A DNA stretch of 63,620 nt, filler included, from Asterionella formosa (taxonomy: Eukaryota): the NCBI GenBank assembly GCA_002256025.1. It is 18 parts of 18 records of this genome, joined end to end, with 100 filler letters (N's around TTAATTAATTAA, not from the genome) between each part and the next. Parts side by side here need not be neighbours in the genome. Positions count along the whole stretch, not along the records: positions 33,246 to 53,983 come from NKIB01003262.1; 17 more parts are not named here. One strand, given 5' to 3'. A program made the position numbers and the translations under genes. Position 1 is the stretch's first letter. Each line of letters starts with the position of its first letter. Under the pieces are notes generated by a model. That model saw nothing but the letters and a program-made list of their open reading frames with translations, was not told where the DNA came from and searched no databases. Below, piece after piece: positions 35,676 through 49,006 of this stretch.

Positions 35676-36950
35676 ATGATGGCAATTCGCAGTTACTCAT
35701 TCAAGAATGAATTACTAGCACTCGCCTTTTTGACTGCTCTGCTTCATTTGGGCAATCAGAAACTAGCGACTCAGTTATCCTCTTTGACGGTGAAATCCAG
35801 TAGCACTGGCAATCAGACAGCAAAAGGGAAAGAGTTTGTGTCCAGAAGCACTGGCAATCAGACAGCAAAAGTGAAAGAGTTTGTGACCATGAATCAGACA
35901 GCAGCAGTATTTACCAACCCGAACACTTGCCAAAGTCTTGGCAGAACTAAGCCTAATCAAGTATGCTCGTCATGGGATGTGAACATGGATTCGTGGTGGA
36001 CCCATCATCCAGAATGGGAGGTTTCGTTTGAAAATGACGTTTGCTTTTGCTTCAGAAAGATGGCGAACCATACACCAAAGTTCAAGTTTCTTCGTGAAAT
36101 TTACAATCTACAGTTTTCCAATTCAACGAATTGTTCGGAAGTCTACAGTAGAAAAATGCTTTCTCTTGGTTTTGGATTTGACACATCAAGGCTGGCTGAT
36201 AGACTTCTTTACGGCTACCAGAACAATCGACCGTTTCAACTTATAAGAAATGAATGGAAGTATGCCGTTTCGCTGGACAAAACAGTTAAAGTGTGTCCGG
36301 ATGCATCTGCACTTTGTTACTTTTTACCTCTCGGAAGTTGCCCAGCAGGAAAGGACCAAGTCGGTGTCAAGGGAGACTGGTATATGGACTCAAGTGGAAG
36401 GATTCAAACAAAGCAACTCCAACTAGCATGGTTACGGGTACATGCCACGCGACCTCAGCAATGGTTCCGTAAGCGCCTGTATGAGTATATGAACGAGCGC
36501 TTCCCCTGGGAGGTGCGAACACCATGTGTAGCCATGCATGTTCGTCGATCTGATGTTGTCAAAGAATCTCGAAGGTATACTTCAATTACCAAATATCTAG
36601 AAAAAGTGCCGGTTCTCAAATCAAGGAGAATTATGAACATTATGCTCTTCACTGACGATGCTCACGCTATTGGTGAAACAGTCGAGCTTCACCCAGACTA
36701 CAACTGGATGTACATGAATAAGAGAAGGTATCGTGGAACAGAAGGGAAACAGGGAGTTTATATGCCATCGCATGATCCTGTGATGGAGGTTTTGGATATA
36801 TATTCAACCTTTCGGCTCGCCATGCATTGTGACATTCTGGTTCATTCCAAGAGCACCTTCGCTGATGCAATTTACGCCTACATGGTTTCAACAGGACGTA
36901 AAATCAAGCGTATCATGATTGACACAGGCCAAGGGAACCTTCCTGATTAA
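35676..36950 (+). CDS. GT23/alpha-1,6-fucosyltransferase-like type II membrane glycosyltransferase, paralog 1
   Basis: N-terminal hydrophobic anchor; HVRRSD and LFTDD motifs typical of GDP-fucose transferases; aligns along its length to 41827-43104. Confidence 0.75.
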   Translation: MMAIRSYSFKNELLALAFLTALLHLGNQKLATQLSSLTVKSSSTGNQTAKGKEFVSRSTGNQTAKVKEFVTMNQTAAVFTNPNTCQSLGRTKPNQVCSSWDVNMDSWWTHHPEWEVSFENDVCFCFRKMANHTPKFKFLREIYNLQFSNSTNCSEVYSRKMLSLGFGFDTSRLADRLLYGYQNNRPFQLIRNEWKYAVSLDKTVKVCPDASALCYFLPLGSCPAGKDQVGVKGDWYMDSSGRIQTKQLQLAWLRVHATRPQQWFRKRLYEYMNERFPWEVRTPCVAMHVRRSDVVKESRRYTSITKYLEKVPVLKSRRIMNIMLFTDDAHAIGETVELHPDYNWMYMNKRRYRGTEGKQGVYMPSHDPVMEVLDIYSTFRLAMHCDILVHSKSTFADAIYAYMVSTGRKIKRIMIDTGQGNLPD

Positions 36951-37109: not shown

Positions 37110-38621
37110 TTAATTTGTTAACCTAGCATTATTTCGTCTATGAGTCATGCAAGAACCACCATCATGTGCGCATTCCTCGCAACAGGGTGAGTTGTCACTT
37201 CCAGGATTTGATTGGAGCTCTTTACAACGTGCCTTATAAAATGTGTGCAATGCCCGATCCTTGATCACAAAGCTAAAGAGAAAATCAAAGCAAAATTTCA
37301 CGTCACGATCTTGTTGTTTAAATGGCTTTGGAGAAGCAAGGCGTGCCGAGTTGGTAACAAGCGCGACACTAGCAGGACGATGAGAAGTGAGAACGGAAAT
37401 AAGGTGCGAGTGAGTGATTGGCACAATAGTTATGAAGGGACAAGAAAGCAACAAAATCTGTGTAAAAAGAAAATTATTCACGTACCAGAACCGAACCCAT
37501 GCACTAATCTTGTCATAGTTGATGGTTGCCGAGTGTTGTCGAAACTCGATTGTAGGTTGACGACCACTCACAAGATTTTGTAAGTTTAATTTGTAATACC
37601 GGCCTGAACGGTTCATCAATTTGGCCAAGGATGCGATATCCTGACAATCAGCCAACGCGGTATGCCTTTTCTTGTTGCTGCTGATCCCCCCAACATGCTG
37701 GTCCACTGAGGCTTTGTTGCTCTGAAAGTATCGATCACTTTCGGGACTTCCAGTGCGACGAGAAGGAGGCATGAACGAATCCATGACATCCTCGTACTTG
37801 ATAAAGTTCTGACAAACCTTGATGAGTTGCTGCAAAGATTTGCCCGATACATCGACATGGACATGAAACCCCATACTCTTGTTTACCTTTAGCTTGGGAT
37901 TGAATTTCGACAAGGCCCTGGTGACGTCGGTAACCTCCGAGAGGCCCTTGCCGCCTTCCAGGACTCGCGACACCAACTCAAATGTATTACAATTTGGCAA
38001 AGTGGAGCTGCACACAATGCTGCTGTCGGGAACAATTTTCCATCCCCCTTTGTAAGGGTCTCGTCCTTCAGTGTAACTGTCGACAACCTTGACCTTACCA
38101 GCGTTTCGGGGCATTTTATCGGCAATCGCTTCAGGGAGAACTCCGACAGCTGAGGTCAACTCCAGTTCAATACCAAATTTCTGCGTTTCCGGAATCTTGA
38201 GCATTCGAAGCTGTCCATCTCCCGAGTCGATCAGGGTGCGCACTTGCGATTCTTTTCTCGAAGCACCTTCCTCGTCCAGCACTATTTCATGCTCAACTTC
38301 CATTTGAGAGCCGCCGATACCTCGAATCTTGAGGGTGGCCACCACAGATCCATACGTTTCTTGTCGCGTGCTGAAACGCCACACAAGCTGACCATCGGGT
38401 CGCCTGACAGGGATTGGCGCATGGCAAACAAACGTCTGAGGATGAAAGGAGGGCCCTAAATCAAAAGTCACTCGTTCCACGACATTCGATTTCCCGCGAA
38501 GCACATCTAGGTAGAGAGTCCAGTTATGAATCTTCTTGTATTGTCTGCTGCGATCCAGCTTGGCTACGAGGACAGGAATCCTCGTGTACGTGTTGCCGAC
38601 GACGAAATCAACTCTCACCAT
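37110..38621 (-). CDS. YEATS-like domain fused to a COOH-NH2 ligase (Amidoligase_2-type); one 117-bp in-frame intron (37369-37485); ~464 aa
   Basis: YEATS-like HNWTLYL...VERVTFDLGPSF...QETYG; ligase motifs FGIELE, WKIVPDSSI, FELVS, GFHVHV, RYYKLN, TIEFRQH; removing GTACGT...CTAG gives VRFCVALV. Confidence 0.85.
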   Translation of the reverse strand: MVRVDFVVGNTYTRIPVLVAKLDRSRQYKKIHNWTLYLDVLRGKSNVVERVTFDLGPSFHPQTFVCHAPIPVRRPDGQLVWRFSTRQETYGSVVATLKIRGIGGSQMEVEHEIVLDEEGASRKESQVRTLIDSGDGQLRMLKIPETQKFGIELELTSAVGVLPEAIADKMPRNAGKVKVVDSYTEGRDPYKGGWKIVPDSSIVCSSTLPNCNTFELVSRVLEGGKGLSEVTDVTRALSKFNPKLKVNKSMGFHVHVDVSGKSLQQLIKVCQNFIKYEDVMDSFMPPSRRTGSPESDRYFQSNKASVDQHVGGISSNKKRHTALADCQDIASLAKLMNRSGRYYKLNLQNLVSGRQPTIEFRQHSATINYDKISAWVRFWYVNNFLFTQILLLSCPFITIVPITHSHLISVLTSHRPASVALVTNSARLASPKPFKQQDRDVKFCFDFLFSFVIKDRALHTFYKARCKELQSNPGSDNSPCCEECAHDGGSCMTHRRNNARLTN

Positions 38622-40233
38622 GCTCACTTCGTTAAAACTGAACTGGACAATAGCAACTACCGGTATATAGACTACCTGGTACCGGCACTAGAGATTGTTT
38701 GATGATCGCCAGCTTTATTATCGGTAGACTAGTGGAGGAGATGTGATAGTTCTTCTGCTCAAAAATACAGATTTCGCTCGAGGATTAAAAACAGGAACAT
38801 GGCTAAAAATGCAGAACAAAGCAAAGGGACAACCAATTTGGATACAGGCAGTATGACATACGTAAAGTAATTCAAAGTGACACGTGTAACAATTTGATAC
38901 CGGTATACTGGTATGTAGGGGCTATAATACAGCATATGTTCTGGACTCGAAGCACCCTCCACACGCAAGCTTTTGTGCTTCAAACGTTCGTTGATAAAAT
39001 GGGCAATTGAAAGTCATTGTAAAAAGAATCCTAATCATTCTCATGTTTTCTTAGCTGAATAAATATTGTTTTCATCATGCCGATTGACGAAAGTGACATG
39101 AGGGTGGGTCGATCGCTGATGAGAAAGCTTAAGTCTGGAATGCTGCCAAGATTTGCTGAGAAAGGAAGAAGTCGAAAATCATAAATTGCAGTGATTTGAT
39201 AATTTCGGAGAATCATTACTTTTCTGCTCATAGAACCCTTTGTAGGCGTTGTTCTCCCTGTGATCACAACACAATAAAGCTAGCATAGTAGTGAACAATA
39301 CAACTTCACCATAAATATTACATCATTACACAACTTCAGAATCGTGATCCTTGTCCTCCTCCATTTGTCTTGATTGCTTCGTTTTTTTGTCTTGCAGAAC
39401 CTCACAGGTTGATTGTAGTATTTACTAGGCAGTTGTGAGGGAATTGTGCGCAGTGTCCCCACTGTGAAAATCAAAAAAGAAGAACTTTCCAACAGTTGTT
39501 AGTAGTGATGAGCAACAGAGGACCGGTTATTGTCACACAAATTTTTGCACCAGCATCTCACTCAGTTGTCCATTTTAATTCCTGTTCTTTCTTGTGGAAG
39601 TAGCGATAACGATGATATGAGGATTGCATTGATTTGAATGAGCGATAAGTGGCGAAATAAAAGTTGGTGTAATATTCTTCAAGTCGGACATTGTACATTG
39701 GCAACCACACAAGGAGCGGATTGGCGAAGGTTTCAAGCAACAACACAACAATCAGCAGATCATCAGGGACAAGGGAAGCAACAAATATGTCATTCTATTT
39801 ACAGCTGTAGCAATTTTTATTCGGAAATTGCATACAAATTATCAAGCAAATGTCATCAAAGTGCTGCCCCAAAACATATAATGATAGCTACTAGCTAATC
39901 ATTATTTCCTATAGTTTGCTATCATTTACCCTGTATGTGAGGTCACCAACACTACCAAAAGCACACCATTGTCAATCAATTGATTGATTTAGCATTGCTA
40001 GTGGTTTTGTCATTGTAAATTGTGCTTGAGGGGTATTTCAATGGGCGATTTTTCCAAAATAAGCAAGTAGCCAGCAACATAAAGTACCATAAGTATTTGT
40101 TGAGAGACTCCTTTTACCTATTATAGGAAAAACAGACTAAAACATCCTGGAAAATACAAATGTTTGACCACGTCAAAGGTTGCATGTGTGTAATGGGAAC
40201 GAATGAACATCTGAATGTATGAACTTATGAACG

Positions 40234-40918: not shown

Positions 40919-41826
40919 CTTGGTACCAGTAGCACAGTTCAAAATACCGGTTGCGGTTATTGAAGCACAGGGCGGGAGCTCGACGACCGGGACATGGACT
41001 ATCGCTACTGGCACTCTAATATACATACATATGATACGCACGAAAGGTGCACAGTGTATGATTTTTATCGGAGTATCAAGTCTCATACATTTGATTTTTT
41101 TCATTTTGTATTTAAATTGCCAGTTATACCAGTAACAGGTGCTCCTACCTGGTACTCTACCACAACTGGTTGCAACTGTCGTACTGGCATGTACATTGAG
41201 TACCACGTACCACATTTCTATGTAGAGAGAACTTGTTCAGTATTCTTCATTGCGTGCGTGGTACTGGTACCAGGGTTCCTGTTGCCGGCAGGCAAAATGC
41301 GTTACTTCGCTCGTGCTTCTCGCAAACTCTATGTAGCTCCTACCAGTAGTACTCTCGGTATACGACATACTACCTGGTATGGTAAATACCTGTAGAAATG
41401 TTACAATCATTCATATGAATAAGAAAAAATGAGGTGGGATCGCTCGTCGGCCGGGCGGCTCTTCCTCACGATTTAAATTGTGTTCTTGGCTGGCTGTCTT
41501 CAACTTGTTTGGCTGAACAAAGAAGAAGGCATCGAGCAATGATGCGTGTTTGATTTCTCGAGACGCAAGTTCGTCATTTTATACTCCTCCTTTTAACAAT
41601 CTAAACTACCCTGACTAGTATTGTCTAGTGTTAACCCACAACATACTTTCTTGCGAACCCCCCTCATCTGAACGACGACCCATTTGGAATTACTTCCATT
41701 GACGACATATCCATGGTTTGAAATCGGATCCCGACACAACGGAATACAAATTAACGTGAGGAAAGGGCGAACTCGAAAATTGCATATCAAAGCAGCCACA
41801 TTGCTAATTTCCTACTACAGTGGATC

Positions 41827-43104
41827 ATGAAGGCCGTGATCACTCTCTTATTCAAGAAGGAAACCTTCATCGTTGCCGTCCTTTCGTATGCTTTGTTTCG
41901 ATTAGGCAATCAGAAACTATCGAATCAGTTATCCAGTTCATCGGTGGCATCCAGCACCCCTTGCAATCAGTCAGCAACAGTCATTAGCGACTTGGACGTC
42001 TGCCGAAGTTATGGAATATCCGCGGATCAACTATGCGCTTCATGGGATGTTGAAATGGATTCGTGGTGGACGCATCATCCCGAATGGGAGATTTCGTTCG
42101 AAAATGATGCTTGCTTTTGCTTCAGAAAGATGGCGAACCATACTCCTCAGTACGCATTTCTTCGTGAAATCTACAATCTGCAGTTTTCGGAGTCGACGGA
42201 TTGTTCGAAAGTATACAGCAAGAATATGGTCTCTTATGGTTTTGGTCTCGACACGTTAACGTTGGCTGATAGGCTACTGTACGGCTACCAGAACAAAAGA
42301 CCATTCCAACTCATAAGAAATGAATGGAAATATGCAGTCTCACCAGACAAGACATTTAAAGTCTGTCCGAATGCTTCTGCATTTTGTTTCTTTTTACCTA
42401 TCGGAAAGTGCCCAGCTGGAGTACACCAGATCAATCCAGACGGAGAATGGAGTTTGGATGCAAAAATAAAAAATCCAGCGCAGCGACAATGGTTACGGGT
42501 ACATGTCACGAGACCTCAGCAGTGGTTTCGTAAGCGCCTGTATGAATATATGAAAGAGCGCTTCCCCTGGGAGGTGCATACACCATGTGTAGCCATGCAT
42601 GTACGTCGATCTGATGTTGTCAAAGATGGTTTTACTCGAAAGTATTTTGCCATTGCCGAATATCTAGAAAAAGTACCAGATCTCAAGTCAAGAAAAATCA
42701 AGAATATTATGCTCTTCACTGACGATGCTAATGCTATCGATGAAGCTCTCGAGTTTCACTGTGACTACAACTGGATGTACATGAACAGGACAAGGTATCG
42801 TGGGGCAGAAGGGAAATGGGGAGTGCATATGCCATCAAATGATCCAGTGATGGAGGTTCTGGCTATATATGCCACCTTTCGGCTCGCCATGCATTGTGAC
42901 ATCCTGGTTCATTCCAAGAGCGCCTTTTCCCCAGCAATTTATGACTACATGGCTTCAACCCGACGTAACATCACACGTATCGAGATTGATAAAGACGAAG
43001 GGAAACGCCCTAACCAAAAATATGCAGGCTCGAATAAATTGCTTGAGAGTAAGTTGGACGAGCTGAGAAAGAAGAAAGGAAGCAATGTTAGTATCAATTC
43101 GTAA
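41827..43104 (+). CDS. GT23/alpha-1,6-fucosyltransferase-like glycosyltransferase, paralog 2
   Basis: 425-aa intact ORF; N-terminal anchor; HVRRSD and LFTDD motifs. Confidence 0.78.
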   Translation: MKAVITLLFKKETFIVAVLSYALFRLGNQKLSNQLSSSSVASSTPCNQSATVISDLDVCRSYGISADQLCASWDVEMDSWWTHHPEWEISFENDACFCFRKMANHTPQYAFLREIYNLQFSESTDCSKVYSKNMVSYGFGLDTLTLADRLLYGYQNKRPFQLIRNEWKYAVSPDKTFKVCPNASAFCFFLPIGKCPAGVHQINPDGEWSLDAKIKNPAQRQWLRVHVTRPQQWFRKRLYEYMKERFPWEVHTPCVAMHVRRSDVVKDGFTRKYFAIAEYLEKVPDLKSRKIKNIMLFTDDANAIDEALEFHCDYNWMYMNRTRYRGAEGKWGVHMPSNDPVMEVLAIYATFRLAMHCDILVHSKSAFSPAIYDYMASTRRNITRIEIDKDEGKRPNQKYAGSNKLLESKLDELRKKKGSNVSINS

Positions 43105-43613: not shown

Positions 43614-45162
43614 TTATTGGACCCGTTCTGGTGCAACGGTTTCTTTCTTATCATGTTTGTCCGCATCTTCATTTTCCTGAAAGGCATTGACACTTAAAAA
43701 TCCATCATCATCATCTGTAAATACAATTTGTTGAGTAATGTTAACAAGAACACGATCTCCTACCAGCAACGGCGTAGGTTCGTCCGTCCGTTTCTGTGGT
43801 GTCAAGCGTTGCCGACGACGTGCTTCTCGATCCAGTAATGGATCTTCATCGTCTTCAGTATCCATTGCTTTGGATATAACATGATATCCCCTCCGTACTG
43901 CATCTTCTTTTGACACATCTGACACAATGACAACACCATTTCCCCGTTCATCCCACCCAACTACAGCCAACGTATGTGGTTGATCTGGTACAAACGCACA
44001 AGCGGTAGGATGTGCCAATCCACGAACTTGAGAAATGGACTTTGGTAAATCTCCACTTTTAGATACCATGGTTAAGAATCGTGAGGACAAGGATGGCTTG
44101 TTTGTAGTAGTAGTAGTAGTATTTGTATTCCCCGAGGCTGCTCGATGCAAACCAAACACGTGAGCTGTCCCCTTGTCCGAACAACACGCCAAGTAGGAAT
44201 GGTCCCATGACCATACCAATCCTGTCATGTCAACCCGTTCCACACCACGACGGAATTCATGCAACAATGTTGAGGTGTGACAACAAAATACCCGAACGAT
44301 GGTACCTTTAATGCTACAGGTAGCCAATTTCTTTCCATCTTCTGTCAAAGCCAATTGTCTGAGGGATGTGTTATGGGCTTCCATGAGCTGTATTTTGGTA
44401 AAATTATATGAAGGTAAATCAATAGTGAGAAATGGTGAGTCATCCTAAAGTCAAGTGACAATCATCATATCATCAATTGTGGTCCAACTAAGGAATGCCC
44501 AGAGCACCGATACGTACCACTGTCTTTCTCAATCCATACAATTCCACTCTCACATGTCCCTCTGTTGTACTTGGGCATGCCAGTACCATATCTTGTACGG
44601 CAGTACTCAACGCCATCAAACCATGAGGGTTGTCGGTGGTGTATACTTTATCTCTCAACGACAAGTCTGCCAAGTGGTACACGTAGATCCTATCTCTCAG
44701 CGCCACAGCAATGGAATCTCTCCTCAACTTGACAGCCAGTACACTTTGCCGGAAGGACAACTCTCCAATGGCCTTTTGAACATGATCATCCCACACTAGT
44801 ACAACATGTGGAGCTGCCTTGGGTGTCACTCCTCCTCCCACAATGGCCAATAGGTTGCATCTGAATAGCATTTCCACATGTGCCAGCCCCCCACCAATAT
44901 CTCTAGAAATAGACAATTGGTATTGCGGTGTCAAGTTAAACAACGAAAATCCATTTTGTGTCCCAATAGCCAAACATGTCCCATCTTGATTGAAGGAAGC
45001 ACAGAGCATGGGCGATGTGCAGGACAATGATGCCGCTGTGTTGGAGGTGAGCCATCCAGCAGACGAATGCCGTGCAGCGCTTGTTGCAGTAGTAGTAGTA
45101 AGTGTAGTAGTAGTTGACGTCGACTCATGAGGAGGAGGATCAGTACCGGTTTCTTGCATCAT
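43614..45162 (-). CDS. ATG18: PROPPIN WD40 autophagy protein (ATG18/WIPI3-4-like), 2 exons (45162-44518, 44387-43614), ~472 aa
   Basis: SFNQDGTCLA, EMLFRCNLLAIVGGG, ATCSIKGTIVRVF, FRRG phosphoinositide-binding motif, SDKGTAHVF; GT-AG intron 44388-44517. Confidence 0.93.
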
Positions 45163-46069
45163 TGTTGGATAGTAGTTACGGTAGTAGCAATAGCCTGGTA
45201 ACTGTAGAAGCCAAGGAACACGGGCAGACTAAAAGCAGTCTAGTCTAGTCCAGTCCACACAGTCGAGTCAACCTAGGTGGAAGTTTCGTGATTGCGACAC
45301 GAAGAAGATGCTGCAATCCTTGTCAAAGGTTGATCAGTCAATGGAGGTAGGCAGCAGAATAATGTACAAGCAATGGGGTTACAGTGATGTTTGTGTCTTC
45401 CAGCGAATGATTAAAGGACGAGCAATAGAAGTAACGAACAAAACTGAATACCAGTACCCTGTGTGCGGCGTGCATATTTTCTTTGTTCCGAAAGAAGAAA
45501 CGCACATCCACGGACTGTTTTTCGATATATGTATGTAATTAGGACGGGAAGTAGACCCTTGTTCTTGTTCAGATGACAGACAATATGTACTAGATTATAA
45601 CAGTAGCCCAATGGATACAGTAGACCAGTAGGAACATTGTAAGAAAACAACAATAGGTACCAGAACTAGACTACGGTACTGGTAAAGGCACACACATACG
45701 TACGTGGTTTTTGTGATGACACCAAGAAACAAGGCACAAAAATGTGTGTATTCTTTCTTGTACACCTGGTACCGCAGTTGCCGTACGTAGTCTGTTGGAC
45801 CTCGCCCTCGTCGGAACGAAGAATGTGAAGAAAATCTGCTGCCGACAAACAGTATTTTTGATGAGATCATTGGCTTGTTGTGTTGTGCTGTGCTGTGCTT
45901 CGCTTATATTGCAGCGCTTTGCAGCATAGATTATAGTTGTAGACAGACAGAACCTACTTCACCAACCATCCTCAACCTCCAATCGAACCTATTCTAATAC
46001 TACCGGTATACTACCGGGTATACTACTATACTGTGTTGATCAGGAACACCACAATCCCTTCTAATCATC

Positions 46070-49006
46070 ATGTTAGCACAACGAAATGTCGCTCCATTGT
46101 ATTTGTTGAACCTACAAGGACTTTTTGGTCACGTTGTTCTGATAGTAGTTGTAGCAGTTGCAGTAGTGCTGGATTCCACTACAACGACGAATGCATTCTC
46201 ACCTATTTCGCCAACAACAACCATGACAACTCCACCACATCATCTCGGCATGACAGCAGCAGCAGCAACAACAACGTTTTCTACTGACTCCATGAATCAA
46301 AATCAACCACAAGTATTTGCCAATGGATATTCGACTAAATTGACATTATTGGAAGCCCTAGAAGAAGCAACGACGATGGCATTTCAAAACATCCCACCAT
46401 CAAGCAAGAATATTGACTTGTGTATGGTTTCTGTTTCTAGTTTATATGATGGTCAAGCATCACCAACGATTGTTATTCCGACCATTTTGGCGACTGCCAA
46501 GAACCTGTATAACGATGATATTACTATTCATCATATACTTGGTTGTACAGCTGCTGGATTGATTAGCAGCAGCAGCAACAACAACAACAAGTCGACAACA
46601 TCCACTACAAATACTGCTGCCGCTGCTACAATTATTGTACCGGTAGAATCGGAAGGGATTGCTGGAGTTTCCATTACCTTTTGCATATTACCTGATGTTC
46701 ATGTTCAAACCTTTCATGTTTTGGTGGATGATGTTCCAGATGACATTGGTAGGATCCCTCCAGATACATGGAAACGTGCCATTGGATTATCCACAATGGA
46801 ATCATTGACTGATACGAAACCCATTGTCATGTTGTTGTCATCACCGTCATTTGATACATTAGATGATTTATTGACAGGATTCGATGCTTGTTATCCATCC
46901 AATACAATGGTGGGTGGGATAGCCAGCACTGTAAGTTCCTTGTCACGAGCTAGATTATTTAGATACAATCGGAATGGCGGGATCATGGACACGTTGGCTG
47001 AGGGGTGTGTAGGTGTGGTCCTTCGGGGGGATATTGAAGCCAAGGTTATCATGGCACAAGGAACTAAACCTGTGGGTGGGATTTATCGTGTCGTTAAAGG
47101 CGTGGCATCCACCATTCAAGCCATTTGCTTGGATGAAACTGCTACTCAACAAATTATGGAGGAGGATAATGATAACAACTTTTCTGCGGATGACAATACT
47201 AATGATGATGATTCCACAAAGAATATGAGTGAAGCTGCTGCAGCCTATGCCAAGGCTGCCATTCCGAAACCTATTTTAGCAGAAGCAAACTTTTTACTTC
47301 GAACGTTGTCTGACGATGATCAAGCATCGATGCGAAAGGCCATTTTAGTTGGATTGGAACGATCTGGTGGGATGCCTCGAACTCCGAATGAACTGGCACG
47401 ATTGGCTGCAGGCCAAGGACATCGATTTGTTGTCCAACAAGTAGCAAGTGCTGGAATGAAAGATGGGTCTGTAACATTGCCCCGTGGTGCAGTCAGTGTT
47501 GGACGTCGTTTGAGATTCTTTGTCCGAGAAGCGGAATTTGCAAAACGAGAACTCACGGCCCTTTGGATGGGGTATAAGAAGCAAGTCTTGGAAGGAACGT
47601 TTACTGGTAAACCAGCTTTCACGCCGTCGGCATGTATGATCCTAACAACTGTGGATCGAGGGACTAAATTTTTTGGTGGCAAGCAAGGATATGAAAGTAG
47701 TACGGCGGCAGAATTCGTACCTACCGTGCCATGCATATCTGGCTTTTTTACCAATGGTGTAGTCGGGCCCTTGGATGATGTTGGCATCAATGACAGCCAA
47801 GTCCATTCTAGTGCGGCTGCATTTGTTTTATTCGGAAGCGTGTCACGTCGACCAATCTATACGCCAGCAGTAATTAAGGATACTATAGACATTGACGAAC
47901 TGGAATCAGGCGACACCGCCGACTCTGGTTCCAAGGCCGAGACAACAACAACAAAGAACGTTTCTTCGACTGAAAAGGCGCCTCGCGCTGAGAATGGGGA
48001 ACTGATTCTTAAACGTCGCGAAATTCATGCCGGTCGTGCTTTGACGGTATCGACCGTAGAATGGAGTGTTGCCGACAAGGCGGCAACGCCTACATCGACC
48101 CTCGAAGGATTCATGTGGGACAAGGAAACCGAAGTCGATCGATTTCGAGAACGAGTGCCACTTTCCAACTTGGTCAGTCAATGCAAACTTTCCATTATGG
48201 ACCCCACCATGCCAAAGCCACGAGATTTCACTGGACCAATCCTACGTGCCAATGACTTTGTTATTATTCCAGAGTGCAAGCGCATGGAGCCAGTGACAGG
48301 AAGTCTTCGCAAGCGATACGATGTGGCGTCGCTAGTGAAACAATATGTCGCTGCTGGTGTAACGGCCTTGAGTATCAATTGCGATCCAGTTTTGTTTGGT
48401 GGTGTACTTGACGATATCACGAAGGCCCGAGAAGCAGCGGCATCGGCTGCCGCTGAACTCTCCTCGGAGGATGGAATGGTCGTCCCTCCGATTCTTGCGT
48501 CTGACTTGATCTTGTACCCATACCAATTGTACAAACTTCAATTAGCTGGAGCCGATGCTGTAAATTTGTTGGCAGGTGCTCTTGCTGGTAAAGACTTGAG
48601 TTACCTGACAAAAATCGCGTCTAGCTTGAAACTTCAAGTGTTGGTAACAGTAACGTCTACTGCTCAGATAGAAACGGTATGCAGTCTCCCCAAGGGAAGT
48701 ATTCACGGTTTGATTGTTTCTAATCGAGAATTGGAAGACTTTAGCTTTGACAATACGGGTGAGCAAGTTTTAAGTCTTTTGAAGAGTTCGAGTCTTTCCA
48801 AATTGCGTTCGATTCATGGCGAAAGTCTTCCCGTTTTGGCAGAAGGGCGTGTTGGAATGATTGAACGAACGGGTGGGGATAGATCTGCCTACTTGAAAGA
48901 ACTAAAAGACGCTGGTGCTACAGGCGCCATTGTTGGCGCAGGTATGGTAGTAGATTCTTTGGAAGGAATCAAGGGTCGATTGGAGGAGCTACGAGATAAG
49001 GCGTGA
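46070..49006 (+). CDS. Probably plastid-targeted FIST-N/FIST-C protein fused to an indole-3-glycerol-phosphate-synthase-like TIM barrel
   Basis: Hydrophobic leader then TNAFSP; FIST motifs GCTAAG, GGIAS, AQGTKPVG, RLRFFVR, RG..FFG, GFFTNG; IGPS-like ECKRMEP, DPVLFGG, PYQ, GADAV, NRELEDF, GATGAIVG. Confidence 0.85.
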   Translation: MLAQRNVAPLYLLNLQGLFGHVVLIVVVAVAVVLDSTTTTNAFSPISPTTTMTTPPHHLGMTAAAATTTFSTDSMNQNQPQVFANGYSTKLTLLEALEEATTMAFQNIPPSSKNIDLCMVSVSSLYDGQASPTIVIPTILATAKNLYNDDITIHHILGCTAAGLISSSSNNNNKSTTSTTNTAAAATIIVPVESEGIAGVSITFCILPDVHVQTFHVLVDDVPDDIGRIPPDTWKRAIGLSTMESLTDTKPIVMLLSSPSFDTLDDLLTGFDACYPSNTMVGGIASTVSSLSRARLFRYNRNGGIMDTLAEGCVGVVLRGDIEAKVIMAQGTKPVGGIYRVVKGVASTIQAICLDETATQQIMEEDNDNNFSADDNTNDDDSTKNMSEAAAAYAKAAIPKPILAEANFLLRTLSDDDQASMRKAILVGLERSGGMPRTPNELARLAAGQGHRFVVQQVASAGMKDGSVTLPRGAVSVGRRLRFFVREAEFAKRELTALWMGYKKQVLEGTFTGKPAFTPSACMILTTVDRGTKFFGGKQGYESSTAAEFVPTVPCISGFFTNGVVGPLDDVGINDSQVHSSAAAFVLFGSVSRRPIYTPAVIKDTIDIDELESGDTADSGSKAETTTTKNVSSTEKAPRAENGELILKRREIHAGRALTVSTVEWSVADKAATPTSTLEGFMWDKETEVDRFRERVPLSNLVSQCKLSIMDPTMPKPRDFTGPILRANDFVIIPECKRMEPVTGSLRKRYDVASLVKQYVAAGVTALSINCDPVLFGGVLDDITKAREAAASAAAELSSEDGMVVPPILASDLILYPYQLYKLQLAGADAVNLLAGALAGKDLSYLTKIASSLKLQVLVTVTSTAQIETVCSLPKGSIHGLIVSNRELEDFSFDNTGEQVLSLLKSSSLSKLRSIHGESLPVLAEGRVGMIERTGGDRSAYLKELKDAGATGAIVGAGMVVDSLEGIKGRLEELRDKA

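Follow-up and report, generated by a model that had tools for sequence, protein, structure and literature searches.

A two-domain gene in Asterionella formosa

We analyzed a gene of the diatom Asterionella formosa (assembly GCA_002256025.1) that joins a domain with the fold of the YEATS acyl-lysine readers to a COOH-NH2 (amide) ligase of the Amidoligase_2 family. It was studied in a stretch of 63,620 nucleotides (the window) made of 18 parts of this genome. The gene lies in the part coming from record NKIB01003262.1 (positions 33,246 to 53,983), and all positions given here count along the window. An earlier note on this DNA had described a single gene of this composition and proposed it as a candidate chromatin reader-writer. 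The features of the locus are as follows.

37110..38621, minus strand: whole gene, from ATG to TAA, with two exons and an in-frame intron; predicted product of 464 amino acids (aa)
37486..38621, minus strand: exon 1, codons 1-378 and 2 nucleotides (nt) of codon 379, with the entire YEATS-like domain and most of the ligase
37369..37485, minus strand: in-frame intron of 117 nt (GTACGT...CTAG); read-through gives 39 spurious residues (WYVNNF...HRPAS)
37110..37368, minus strand: exon 2, with the ligase's C-terminal helices followed by an acidic stretch, a Cys4 tail and the TAA stop (37110-37112)
38217..38621, minus strand: predicted YEATS-fold domain, aa 1-135, eight beta strands (AlphaFold2, VIA and Foldseek; sub-threshold in Pfam)
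Pocket-loop residues of this domain: K30, H32, D33; G56, S58, F59; T85, R86, Q87, Y90, G91; G101, G103, G104
37197..38189, minus strand: Amidoligase_2 / COOH-NH2 ligase of predicted glutamine synthetase (GS)/GCL fold, spanning aa 145 to about 436 and split by the intron (Pfam, VIA and motifs)
37149..37184, minus strand: CCxxC-x6-C motif, aa 441-452, after an acidic run; possible (putative) Zn-binding knuckle

The coordinates given by the earlier note correspond exactly to an open reading frame (ORF) of 503 aa on the minus strand, but the note had missed the in-frame intron and the product has 464 aa rather than 503. The stop-to-stop frame starts at 38687 and, since an in-frame stop lies just upstream, we set the start at the ATG at 38621. 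With a length of 117 nt, the intron keeps the reading frame open; its GC content is 39%, and that of the exons is 49% and 42%. In an alignment of ten sequences, the 39 intron-encoded residues are missing from all nine homologues, which read RF-C-V across the junction. Because these residues are absent from the homologues and the splice places a Cys at the junction, we consider, on the basis of the alignment, that the intron at 37369-37485 is real and that the true product is of 464 aa.

The spliced coding sequence, with its 464 aa and single terminal stop, shows four mismatches with a database protein, P0001 (469 aa, from a 1.7-kb contig), which is five residues longer at the C-terminus; residue 464 is among the mismatches. 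We used P0001 as a stand-in for the spliced protein in folding and searches. A second intron at the 3' end was considered as the cause of its longer C-terminus and was rejected, since the sequence offers no usable splice sites. The C-terminal difference was thus treated as allelic or species divergence.

As the YEATS-like and ligase domains are both encoded in exon 1, the fusion is independent of the splice. Homologues of the same length and coverage were found in seven rows labelled MMETSP, and both domains are visible in three aligned rows of this type (P0051, P0056, P0076). The claim that one gene joins the two domains therefore stands on a single uninterrupted exon, and relatives in which a single transcript-derived ORF holds both domains remove the concern, raised in the earlier note itself, that they might be separately transcribed. 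This is a nuclear diatom gene with one in-frame intron, and the predicted product is a two-domain enzyme of 464 aa.

The N-terminal domain has a YEATS fold

The earlier note had proposed profile searches, structure prediction and a survey of the architecture. With Pfam, both YEATS models match aa 30-115 of the ORF: YEATS (PF03366) with 20.3 bits (E=5.2e-4, cut-off 22) and pYEATS (PF20305) with 19.7 bits (E=8.1e-4, cut-off 26.9). The YEATS search thus falls short of the cut-off for this protein but succeeds for its relatives. At E<=0.01, 37 of 100 homologues are matched by YEATS (best E 1.4e-7) and 56 by pYEATS (best E 6.7e-9), and a more distant fusion, P0215, clears the YEATS cut-off with 38.4 bits.

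We then relied on the structure. The AlphaFold2 model of P0001, built with a 107-sequence alignment, has a mean predicted local distance difference test (pLDDT) of 91.3 and a predicted template modeling score (pTM) of 0.90, the tail at 438-469 being the sole part that is not confident (pLDDT below 50). The strands of the N-terminal domain span residues 2-14, 32-42, 48-54, 63-66, 70-73, 79-89, 94-101 and 106-112. Superposed with VIA, residues 1-134 match the YEATS domain of GAS41 (Z 13.6, root-mean-square deviation (rmsd) 2.2 A over 113 aa), YEATS2 (Z 12.7) and AF9 (Z 12.4). Foldseek against the PDB retrieves GAS41, Sas5, YEATS2, ENL, Taf14 and Yaf9 at E between 7e-5 and 6e-4, with a probability of 1.00 and TM scores (target) up to 0.73. 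Failure to fold as YEATS would have spoken against the earlier proposal, and the structural match to GAS41, YEATS2 and AF9 settles this point in its favor. Hence, the assignment of residues 1-135 to the YEATS fold is solid at the level of the structural model.

Searches of PDB sequences point in the same direction. When a profile of the 107 homologues was used, 20 of the 21 distinct sequences found at E<=10 were YEATS proteins (10 ENL, 8 AF9, 1 YEATS2 and 1 TAF14b), the last one being the ribosomal protein L6. As the best E is only 0.031, this result is consistent with YEATS and short of significant. The domain used as a single sequence found no YEATS protein in the PDB and gave a chance match to hyaluronidase-1 (E=0.48), so that recognition of YEATS needs a profile or a structure. 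A feature search of ESM-Atlas with residues 1-135 retrieved pYEATS/YEATS clusters at 0.85, which we take as a lead only. The linker that follows the domain has two conserved residues, F130 (97 of 107 sequences) and E132 (102). The domain itself is basic across the family, with a median net charge of +5 and a median isoelectric point (pI) of 9.6, and 87% of the sequences are above pI 8.

The ligase domain is complete and its motifs are conserved

The second domain is readily identified by its sequence. Amidoligase_2 (PF12224) matches the ORF at aa 145-378 with 110.4 bits (E=1.8e-31), far above the cut-off of 22. On the spliced P0001 the score rises to 116.9 bits and the match covers profile positions 1-245 of 245. 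The same model matches all of the 100 homologues scanned. Taken with the YEATS and pYEATS matches in this set, this shows that the fusion is no coincidence. The motifs that the earlier note had read as intact are all present, in spliced numbering, as FGIELE (aa 149-154), PDSS (198-201), FELVS (214-218), HVHVD (253-257), RYYKLN (341-346) and TIEFRQH (357-363), and their residues are near-invariant. D199, S201, E215, H253, H255, N346, E359, R361 and H363 are each found in 107 of the 107 homologues, E152, E154 and K344 each in 106, and R341 in 102. The residues of the ExE, D..S, E, HxH, R/K/N and ExR motifs probably have a catalytic role in this type of enzyme. Judging from these motifs, the ligase is complete, catalytically intact and strongly constrained.

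The PDB had no sequence match for the ligase domain when searched with the 107-homologue profile, and in NCBIfam only the YbdK family matched, at E=0.009, which is far below the cut-off of that family. The structure is more informative. With VIA, residues 137-446 match the YbdK-like protein 1tt4 with a Z of 14.0 (rmsd 3.6 A, 232 aa), the 1-naphthylamine GS (8wwv) with 14.0, YbdK itself (1r8g) with 13.2, GmaS with 12.7, the depupylase Dop with 12.6 and glutamine synthetases with 12.3-13.4. Foldseek against the PDB gives GshF and YbdK at E between 6e-6 and 1e-5. The assignment of the modeled domain to a GS/GCL-type fold is thus solid, and since these structural neighbors are tied they do not discriminate between substrates.

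The C-terminal tail and the ends of the protein

After the acidic run, the protein ends in the tail that the earlier note had described as rich in Cys and His (CCEECAH..C). The Cys motif is indeed present and conserved: of the 107 homologues, 100 have the CCxxC and 95 also show the fourth Cys position filled by Cys, but the following His is found in just 17, so that this is a Cys4 tail. In 17 of 100 relatives the Cys motif is followed by a K/R-rich tail containing K[KR]x[KR], at about 13 times the density of the protein body. At the other end, the protein starts directly with the first YEATS beta strand, which leaves no room for a targeting or signal peptide. For this reason we dropped a link to the lysine modifications of silaffins and long-chain polyamines. 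These modifications are not amides.

The YEATS pocket is remodeled

Equivalences between pocket residues were drawn from profile alignments to AF9 (PDB) and to bacterial pYEATS. The K-x-H-D-W of the family aligns to F28-T-H-D-W of AF9 (R28 in 9im4, an F28R mutant), and F-D-L-G-S-S-F to F-H-L-H56-E-S58-F59, with C66 and P69 falling on C66 and P69 of AF9. In the comparison with bacterial pYEATS, L-G-S-S-F is aligned to L-H-P-T-F or L-D-P-S-F, and Q-S-Y-G-S-V to G-W-G-E/T-F, which places Y90 on the Trp of the sandwich. We take Tyr90 to be the equivalent of AF9 Y78, position 89 that of G77 and Gln87 that of E75, the last step presuming in part the numbering of AF9.

The four pocket loops are the best-conserved part of the YEATS-fold domain. 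Among the 107 sequences, H32 and Q87 are invariant, followed by R82 (106), K30 (103), D33 and R86 (102 each) and T85 (101), and G101, G103 and G104 are each found in at least 102. F59 is kept in 97 (with Trp in six others), Ser or Thr at position 58 in 96, G91 in 94 and Y90 in 80 (with Phe in seven others). In canonical YEATS domains, the aromatic sandwich and Ser58 hold the amide of an acylated lysine like a clamp. According to a study of AF9 (10.1101/2025.06.18.660498), F59 and Y78 sandwich the acyl-lysine, the substitutions H56A, F59A, G77A and D103A each abolish binding, the H3-binding surface is described as acidic, and F28R together with E75 makes a polar gate by which lactyl-lysine is favored over acetyl-lysine. 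In our alignment, the pair Lys30/Gln87 occupies the two gate positions of this engineered mutant.

As far as the alignments tell, half of the canonical pocket remains: the family retains Ser58 and the Phe59/Tyr90 sandwich, and it has lost the wall His and Gly. The earlier note had seen that the sandwich aromatics are retained and that the His of LHxSF is replaced by Gly, which the family profile bears out by putting FDLGSSF on FHLHESF of AF9. Its hint of a different ligand is strengthened by two changes besides His56 to Gly, namely Phe28 to Lys and Gly77 to Ser, Thr or Val. Since these three positions are altered, the ligand is probably something other than plain acetyl-lysine. The pocket varies within the larger family: it is canonical in P0215 (M-H-P-S-F and S-W-G), and a haptophyte-type group has D-N-T-F and A-W-G. 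The occurrence of other pockets in distant fusions suggests that, among the fusion proteins, the Gly/Tyr pocket is probably derived.

Widespread occurrence of the fusion in diatoms

To assess the distribution of the fusion, we first used a word-index search, in which 338 of 7,998 scored candidate proteins were found at E<=0.001. Of the 120 listed, 11 carry an organism name, which in every case is that of a diatom (Synedropsis, Mayamaea, Seminavis (2), Cylindrotheca (3), Chaetoceros, Fragilaria, Bacillariaceae sp. and Amphora). UniRef names one of them 'YEATS domain-containing protein'. Among the matches listed, two rows come from one scaffold of Cylindrotheca fusiformis and two from Seminavis robusta. 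With phmmer, an exhaustive comparison against 1.84 billion cluster representatives yielded 4,184 matches at E<=0.001, of which 1,680 reached E<=1e-10 and 140 reached E<=1e-30. When the best 150 representatives were scanned with the two profiles, both domains were present in 73. The remaining 77 comprise 32 fragments without the start of the ligase, 28 proteins with a short N-terminus and 17 with at least 100 aa of other N-terminal sequence. A divergent two-domain member, P0219, comes from the haptophyte Pavlovales sp. CCMP2436. Hence, the survey finds the fusion to be widespread in diatoms and present in one haptophyte. A search for stand-alone copies of the N-terminal domain, in proteins under 276 aa, gave one match, a 201-aa protein that is probably a fragment.

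The ligase group carries a diversity of additional domains. YEATS occurs together with RING in P0056 and with DnaJ in P0166, both of the same ligase group. Other members of the group are fused to SelR/MsrB (P0146, P0211), IBR (P0214) or GATase (P0250). P0156 combines the ligase with CCCH zinc fingers and a BMT5-like rRNA uridine-N3 methyltransferase, and P0157 has the same elements plus a DEAD/Helicase_C module. Ten proteins have 260-500 aa of N-terminal sequence without a Pfam match at E<=0.001 (P0160, P0178, P0184, P0194, P0196, P0201, P0222, P0230, P0244 and P0259), and these N-termini may hide further targeting domains.

Bacterial and viral relatives of the ligase

Relatives of the ligase part alone are found in bacteria and viruses. 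Of 145 candidate stretches in bacteria, 140 could be confirmed, and we retained the 80 best of these, with 29-38% identity; viral contigs held 501 candidates, of which 495 were confirmed. Four of the five bacterial loci examined are in prophage or conjugative-element settings (L001, L008, L011, L027), where the neighbors are an integrase; a holin and a chitinase-like lysin; a Mu portal and an F protein; and TraG and ParA. We searched the surroundings of 80 bacterial (up to 6 kb) and 80 viral (up to 3 kb) ligase loci with the N-domain profile and found no match. For the loci scanned, this indicates that the pairing was not inherited from a prokaryotic system.

The pYEATS domain is rare in the bacteria that we sampled, being found in 9 of 301 Bacteroidota genomes, in 7 of them above the cut-off. 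The diatom N-domain profile aligns over its full length to bacterial pYEATS, with domain E of 1.9e-4 and 3.8e-4 in a search of 174 ORFs. One Bacteroidota locus (L082, 592-1350, plus strand) has an ORF of 253 aa with two tandem pYEATS copies, where the wall position is Asp in one and His in the other.

We built a FastTree phylogeny of 145 ligase domains. It includes 43 from fusions, 42 from other representatives and 60 drawn at random, 30 each, from the best 80 bacterial and the best 80 viral sequences. The tree is quick, unrooted and made on a sample. One branch, with an SH-like support of 87, separates every one of the 43 fusions, and all but one of the 42 other representatives, from the 60 bacterial and viral sequences. 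This topology is compatible with, and no proof of, one acquisition of a ligase from a mobile element followed by domain shuffling in eukaryotes.

Neighboring genes in the window

Two paralogous ORFs of 424 and 449 aa flank the gene, at 35676-36950 and 41755-43104, both on the plus strand. They match FUT8_N_cat, the catalytic part of alpha-1,6-fucosyltransferases, below threshold (21.3 and 23.3 bits, cut-off 27.6). Further away, two adjacent ORFs on the minus strand, at 43614-44444 and 44488-45228, match positions 3-167 and 166-258 of the PROPPIN (Atg18/WIPI) profile, and appear to be two parts of a single gene separated by a short intron. In a frame of 988 aa at 46040-49006, plus strand, FIST N (aa 165-354) occurs together with indole-3-glycerol-phosphate synthase (aa 691-913); such an association of a sensor with an enzyme is unusual. 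These genes (two FUT8-like, PROPPIN, FIST with the synthase) are unrelated to the fusion gene and we rejected a functional link.

A proposed protein-directed ligase and the alternatives

What we observed is the structure of the gene, the two folds, the conserved motifs and where the fusion occurs; from this we infer a protein-directed amide (isopeptide) ligase steered by a remodeled pocket of the acyl-lysine type. This is the explanation that we favor, tentatively and with a confidence somewhat below an even chance. By analogy with other enzymes of this fold, the ligase would use ATP to activate a carboxylate, in the form of an acyl phosphate, for coupling to an amine. The YEATS-like module would dock the enzyme on a lysine bearing a bulkier, or polar or anionic, acyl or aminoacyl group, and this docking ligand is quite possibly the amide made by the ligase itself (read-write). 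The fold, the conservation of the motifs and that of the four pocket loops suggest that both halves are functional. Since an amide clamp is retained beside an amide-forming enzyme, a read-write or product-guided arrangement would be the most economical. The RING, IBR, DnaJ and SelR additions act on proteins, which points to a protein-directed theme. A bolder version, which we hold to be doubtful, is that the enzyme writes a new lysine mark, e.g., epsilon-(gamma-glutamyl)-lysine or another aminoacyl-lysine, which is read by its own remodeled YEATS pocket, with Gly in place of His and a Lys30/Gln87 polar gate. It would then be a self-reinforcing reader-writer in a single polypeptide of diatoms and haptophytes, made from a phage-type ligase and YEATS and acting on nuclear or other proteins.

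Several observations weigh against a protein-directed ligase of this kind. Neither of the two YEATS models in Pfam scores the protein above its curated cut-off. The position of AF9 H56 is Gly in 86 of the 107 sequences (Asp in 7, His in 3), that of G77 (residue 89) is Ser in 37, Thr in 33 and Val in 29 (99 in total), and that of Phe28 is Lys in 103. Because three positions that are important in AF9 have changed, the N-terminal domain may no longer bind acyl-lysine at all. It is also basic, unlike the acidic histone-binding face of AF9, and the protein has no NLS-like (nuclear localization signal) motif. On the side of the ligase, small-molecule gamma-glutamyl-amine synthetases score the same Z as any protein ligase. 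The fusions to CCCH, the BMT5-like methyltransferase and the helicase suggest, by their domain content, a branch of the group directed at RNA or ribonucleoproteins. Finally, our literature search found no experimental characterization of any member.

The proposal of the earlier note, a nuclear chromatin reader-writer, would have the enzyme ligate an amino acid or acyl group onto lysines of histones or chromatin proteins, the YEATS domain reading acylation or the new mark. It agrees with the YEATS fold, whose characterized structural matches are all histone readers, with the absence of room for an N-terminal targeting peptide, and with the K/R-rich tails of 17 of 100 relatives. Yet nothing was found in support of a chromatin or histone target: this protein and 83 of the 100 relatives have no NLS-like motif, the reader domain is basic and has lost the equivalents of His56 and Gly77, pYEATS fits slightly more members than the eukaryotic model (56 against 37 of 100), the accessory domains seen are not of the chromatin type and the sister architectures have an RNA flavor. 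A chromatin role is thus possible but unsupported and unproven, and we see this proposal as unlikely, if still to be reckoned with. We also judge it unlikely that the enzyme is a small-molecule gamma-glutamyl-amine or amino-acid ligase, in the manner of GmaS, PuuA or the 1-naphthylamine GS, where the YEATS-fold domain would substitute for the N-terminal domain found in glutamine synthetases and serve as a lid, oligomerization or regulatory module. The closest structural neighbors of the ligase are of this kind (YbdK-like, gamma-glutamyl-arylamine synthetase, GS and GmaS, Z 12.7-14.0), the weak NCBIfam match to YbdK (E=0.009) and the GATase fusion of P0250 go along with it, the pTM of 0.90 suggests a rigid packing of the two domains, and a ligand other than lysine would suit the altered pocket. 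It is however hard to reconcile a purely structural domain with sandwich aromatics and a Ser58 kept throughout the family; moreover, the fusions to RING, IBR, DnaJ and SelR speak for protein substrates and a conserved Cys4 tail after an acidic linker is unusual in a metabolic enzyme.

The mobile relatives of the ligase raise the question of a conflict or immunity module, in which a sensor of the pYEATS type would control a ligase effector from phages or mobile elements, expanded in microalgae for antiviral or inter-genomic roles. The prokaryotic relatives do lie in prophages and conjugative elements at four of five loci and are common on viral contigs, and pYEATS is listed among the ligand-binding domains of conflict systems in a recent preprint (bioRxiv 10.64898/2026.10.19.760177). 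The family is large and divergent, with 140 representatives at E<=1e-30 and multiple rows in Cylindrotheca fusiformis and Seminavis robusta. Against this, there is no YEATS-like domain near the 80 bacterial (6 kb) or 80 viral (3 kb) ligase loci and no match in PADLOC, and the strict conservation of catalytic and pocket residues speaks against an arms-race diversification at these sites. We therefore regard such a module as improbable. An artefact of the gene model, in which the ORF would merge two neighboring genes or represent a pseudogene, has next to no probability. It is true that the raw ORF holds 39 residues derived from non-coding sequence, but both domains lie in one uninterrupted exon, the intron is a canonical GT..AG whose removal restores the family consensus exactly, and 73 of 150 cluster representatives have both domains.

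Novelty and significance

The idea of a YEATS-ligase pairing acting on chromatin is not new: as a prediction it is already in print for about 15 years, reportedly in the work of Iyer et al. (2009) on COOH-NH2 ligases, and proteins of the family are annotated in public databases. A full-text literature search found no paper pairing YEATS with an amidoligase and no characterization of such an enzyme, so that the earlier note's remark that there is no characterized example stands as far as this search reaches. Within the same reach, what is newly documented here is the gene corrected for its intron, the confident model with two domains, the Cys4 tail, the remodeled pocket and its variation in the family, the haptophyte member, the repertoire of accessory domains, and the absence of the pairing from the scanned loci of bacteria and viruses.

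Should the ligase act on proteins, it would represent a new class of post-translational 'writer', making amide bonds with a GS fold in eukaryotes and hard-wired to a reader fold in major primary producers of the ocean. The prediction is cleanly testable, since the protein is small and soluble-looking and its gene has one intron. The pocket variants of the family, from the canonical His/Trp to Gly/Tyr/Lys, could reveal how YEATS domains are retuned to new acyl groups, which is relevant to the engineering of acyl-lysine readers.

Comparison with known systems

The canonical YEATS readers (AF9, ENL, GAS41/YEATS4, YEATS2, Taf14, Yaf9 and Sas5) have the same eight-stranded beta-sandwich as the diatom domain, which fits them with Z of 12.4-13.6 and rmsd of 2.2-2.6 A over 112-115 residues. 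They share the HDW-type strand 2, the V-F-x-L-x-x-S-F loop, Cys66/Pro69, the sandwich aromatics and Ser58. Unlike them, the diatom domain has an extra hairpin (70-81) and the invariant T85-R86-Q87 and G101-x-G103-G104. The canonical readers sit in histone acetyltransferase (HAT) or elongation complexes, whereas the diatom domain is fused to an enzyme and basic. The pYEATS model (PF20305) matches slightly more members of the family than the eukaryotic one, and in one of the bacterial pYEATS copies the residue aligned with K30 is a Lys as well. Where the diatom domain has Gly at the wall and Tyr in the sandwich, the bacterial copies that we examined retain His or Asp and the Trp of 'GWG', respectively.

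The Amidoligase_2 of phages and mobile elements belong to the same family as the diatom ligase, with 29-39% identity over the whole domain and the same motifs, and within the reach of our literature search no biochemical characterization of them was found either. The prokaryotic and viral forms that we examined are stand-alone proteins of around 300 aa, and the eukaryotic type has gained N- and C-terminal modules. Phage Amidoligase_2 often lie beside a glutamine amidotransferase, according to a published study (PMC10580990). More distantly, YbdK/GCS2, GS, GmaS and the 1-naphthylamine GS share the catalytic fold, with Z of 12.7-14.0 across 219-241 residues, and the ATP/acyl-phosphate chemistry is probably shared with these enzymes, as their modeled similarity suggests. 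The identity with YbdK/GCS2 and the gamma-glutamyl-amine synthetases is 7-13%, and these act on small molecules and are without a YEATS domain. Dop, of the Pup system, is also matched (Z 12.6), at the level of the fold only and tied with many other GS-fold chains; the PDB profile search gave no sequence match to PafA or Dop. PafA, a relative of Dop, is a GS-fold enzyme that ligates the gamma-carboxylate of a Glu to lysines of proteins by an isopeptide bond. Used as an analogy, PafA is the closest mechanistic precedent for the ligase that we propose.

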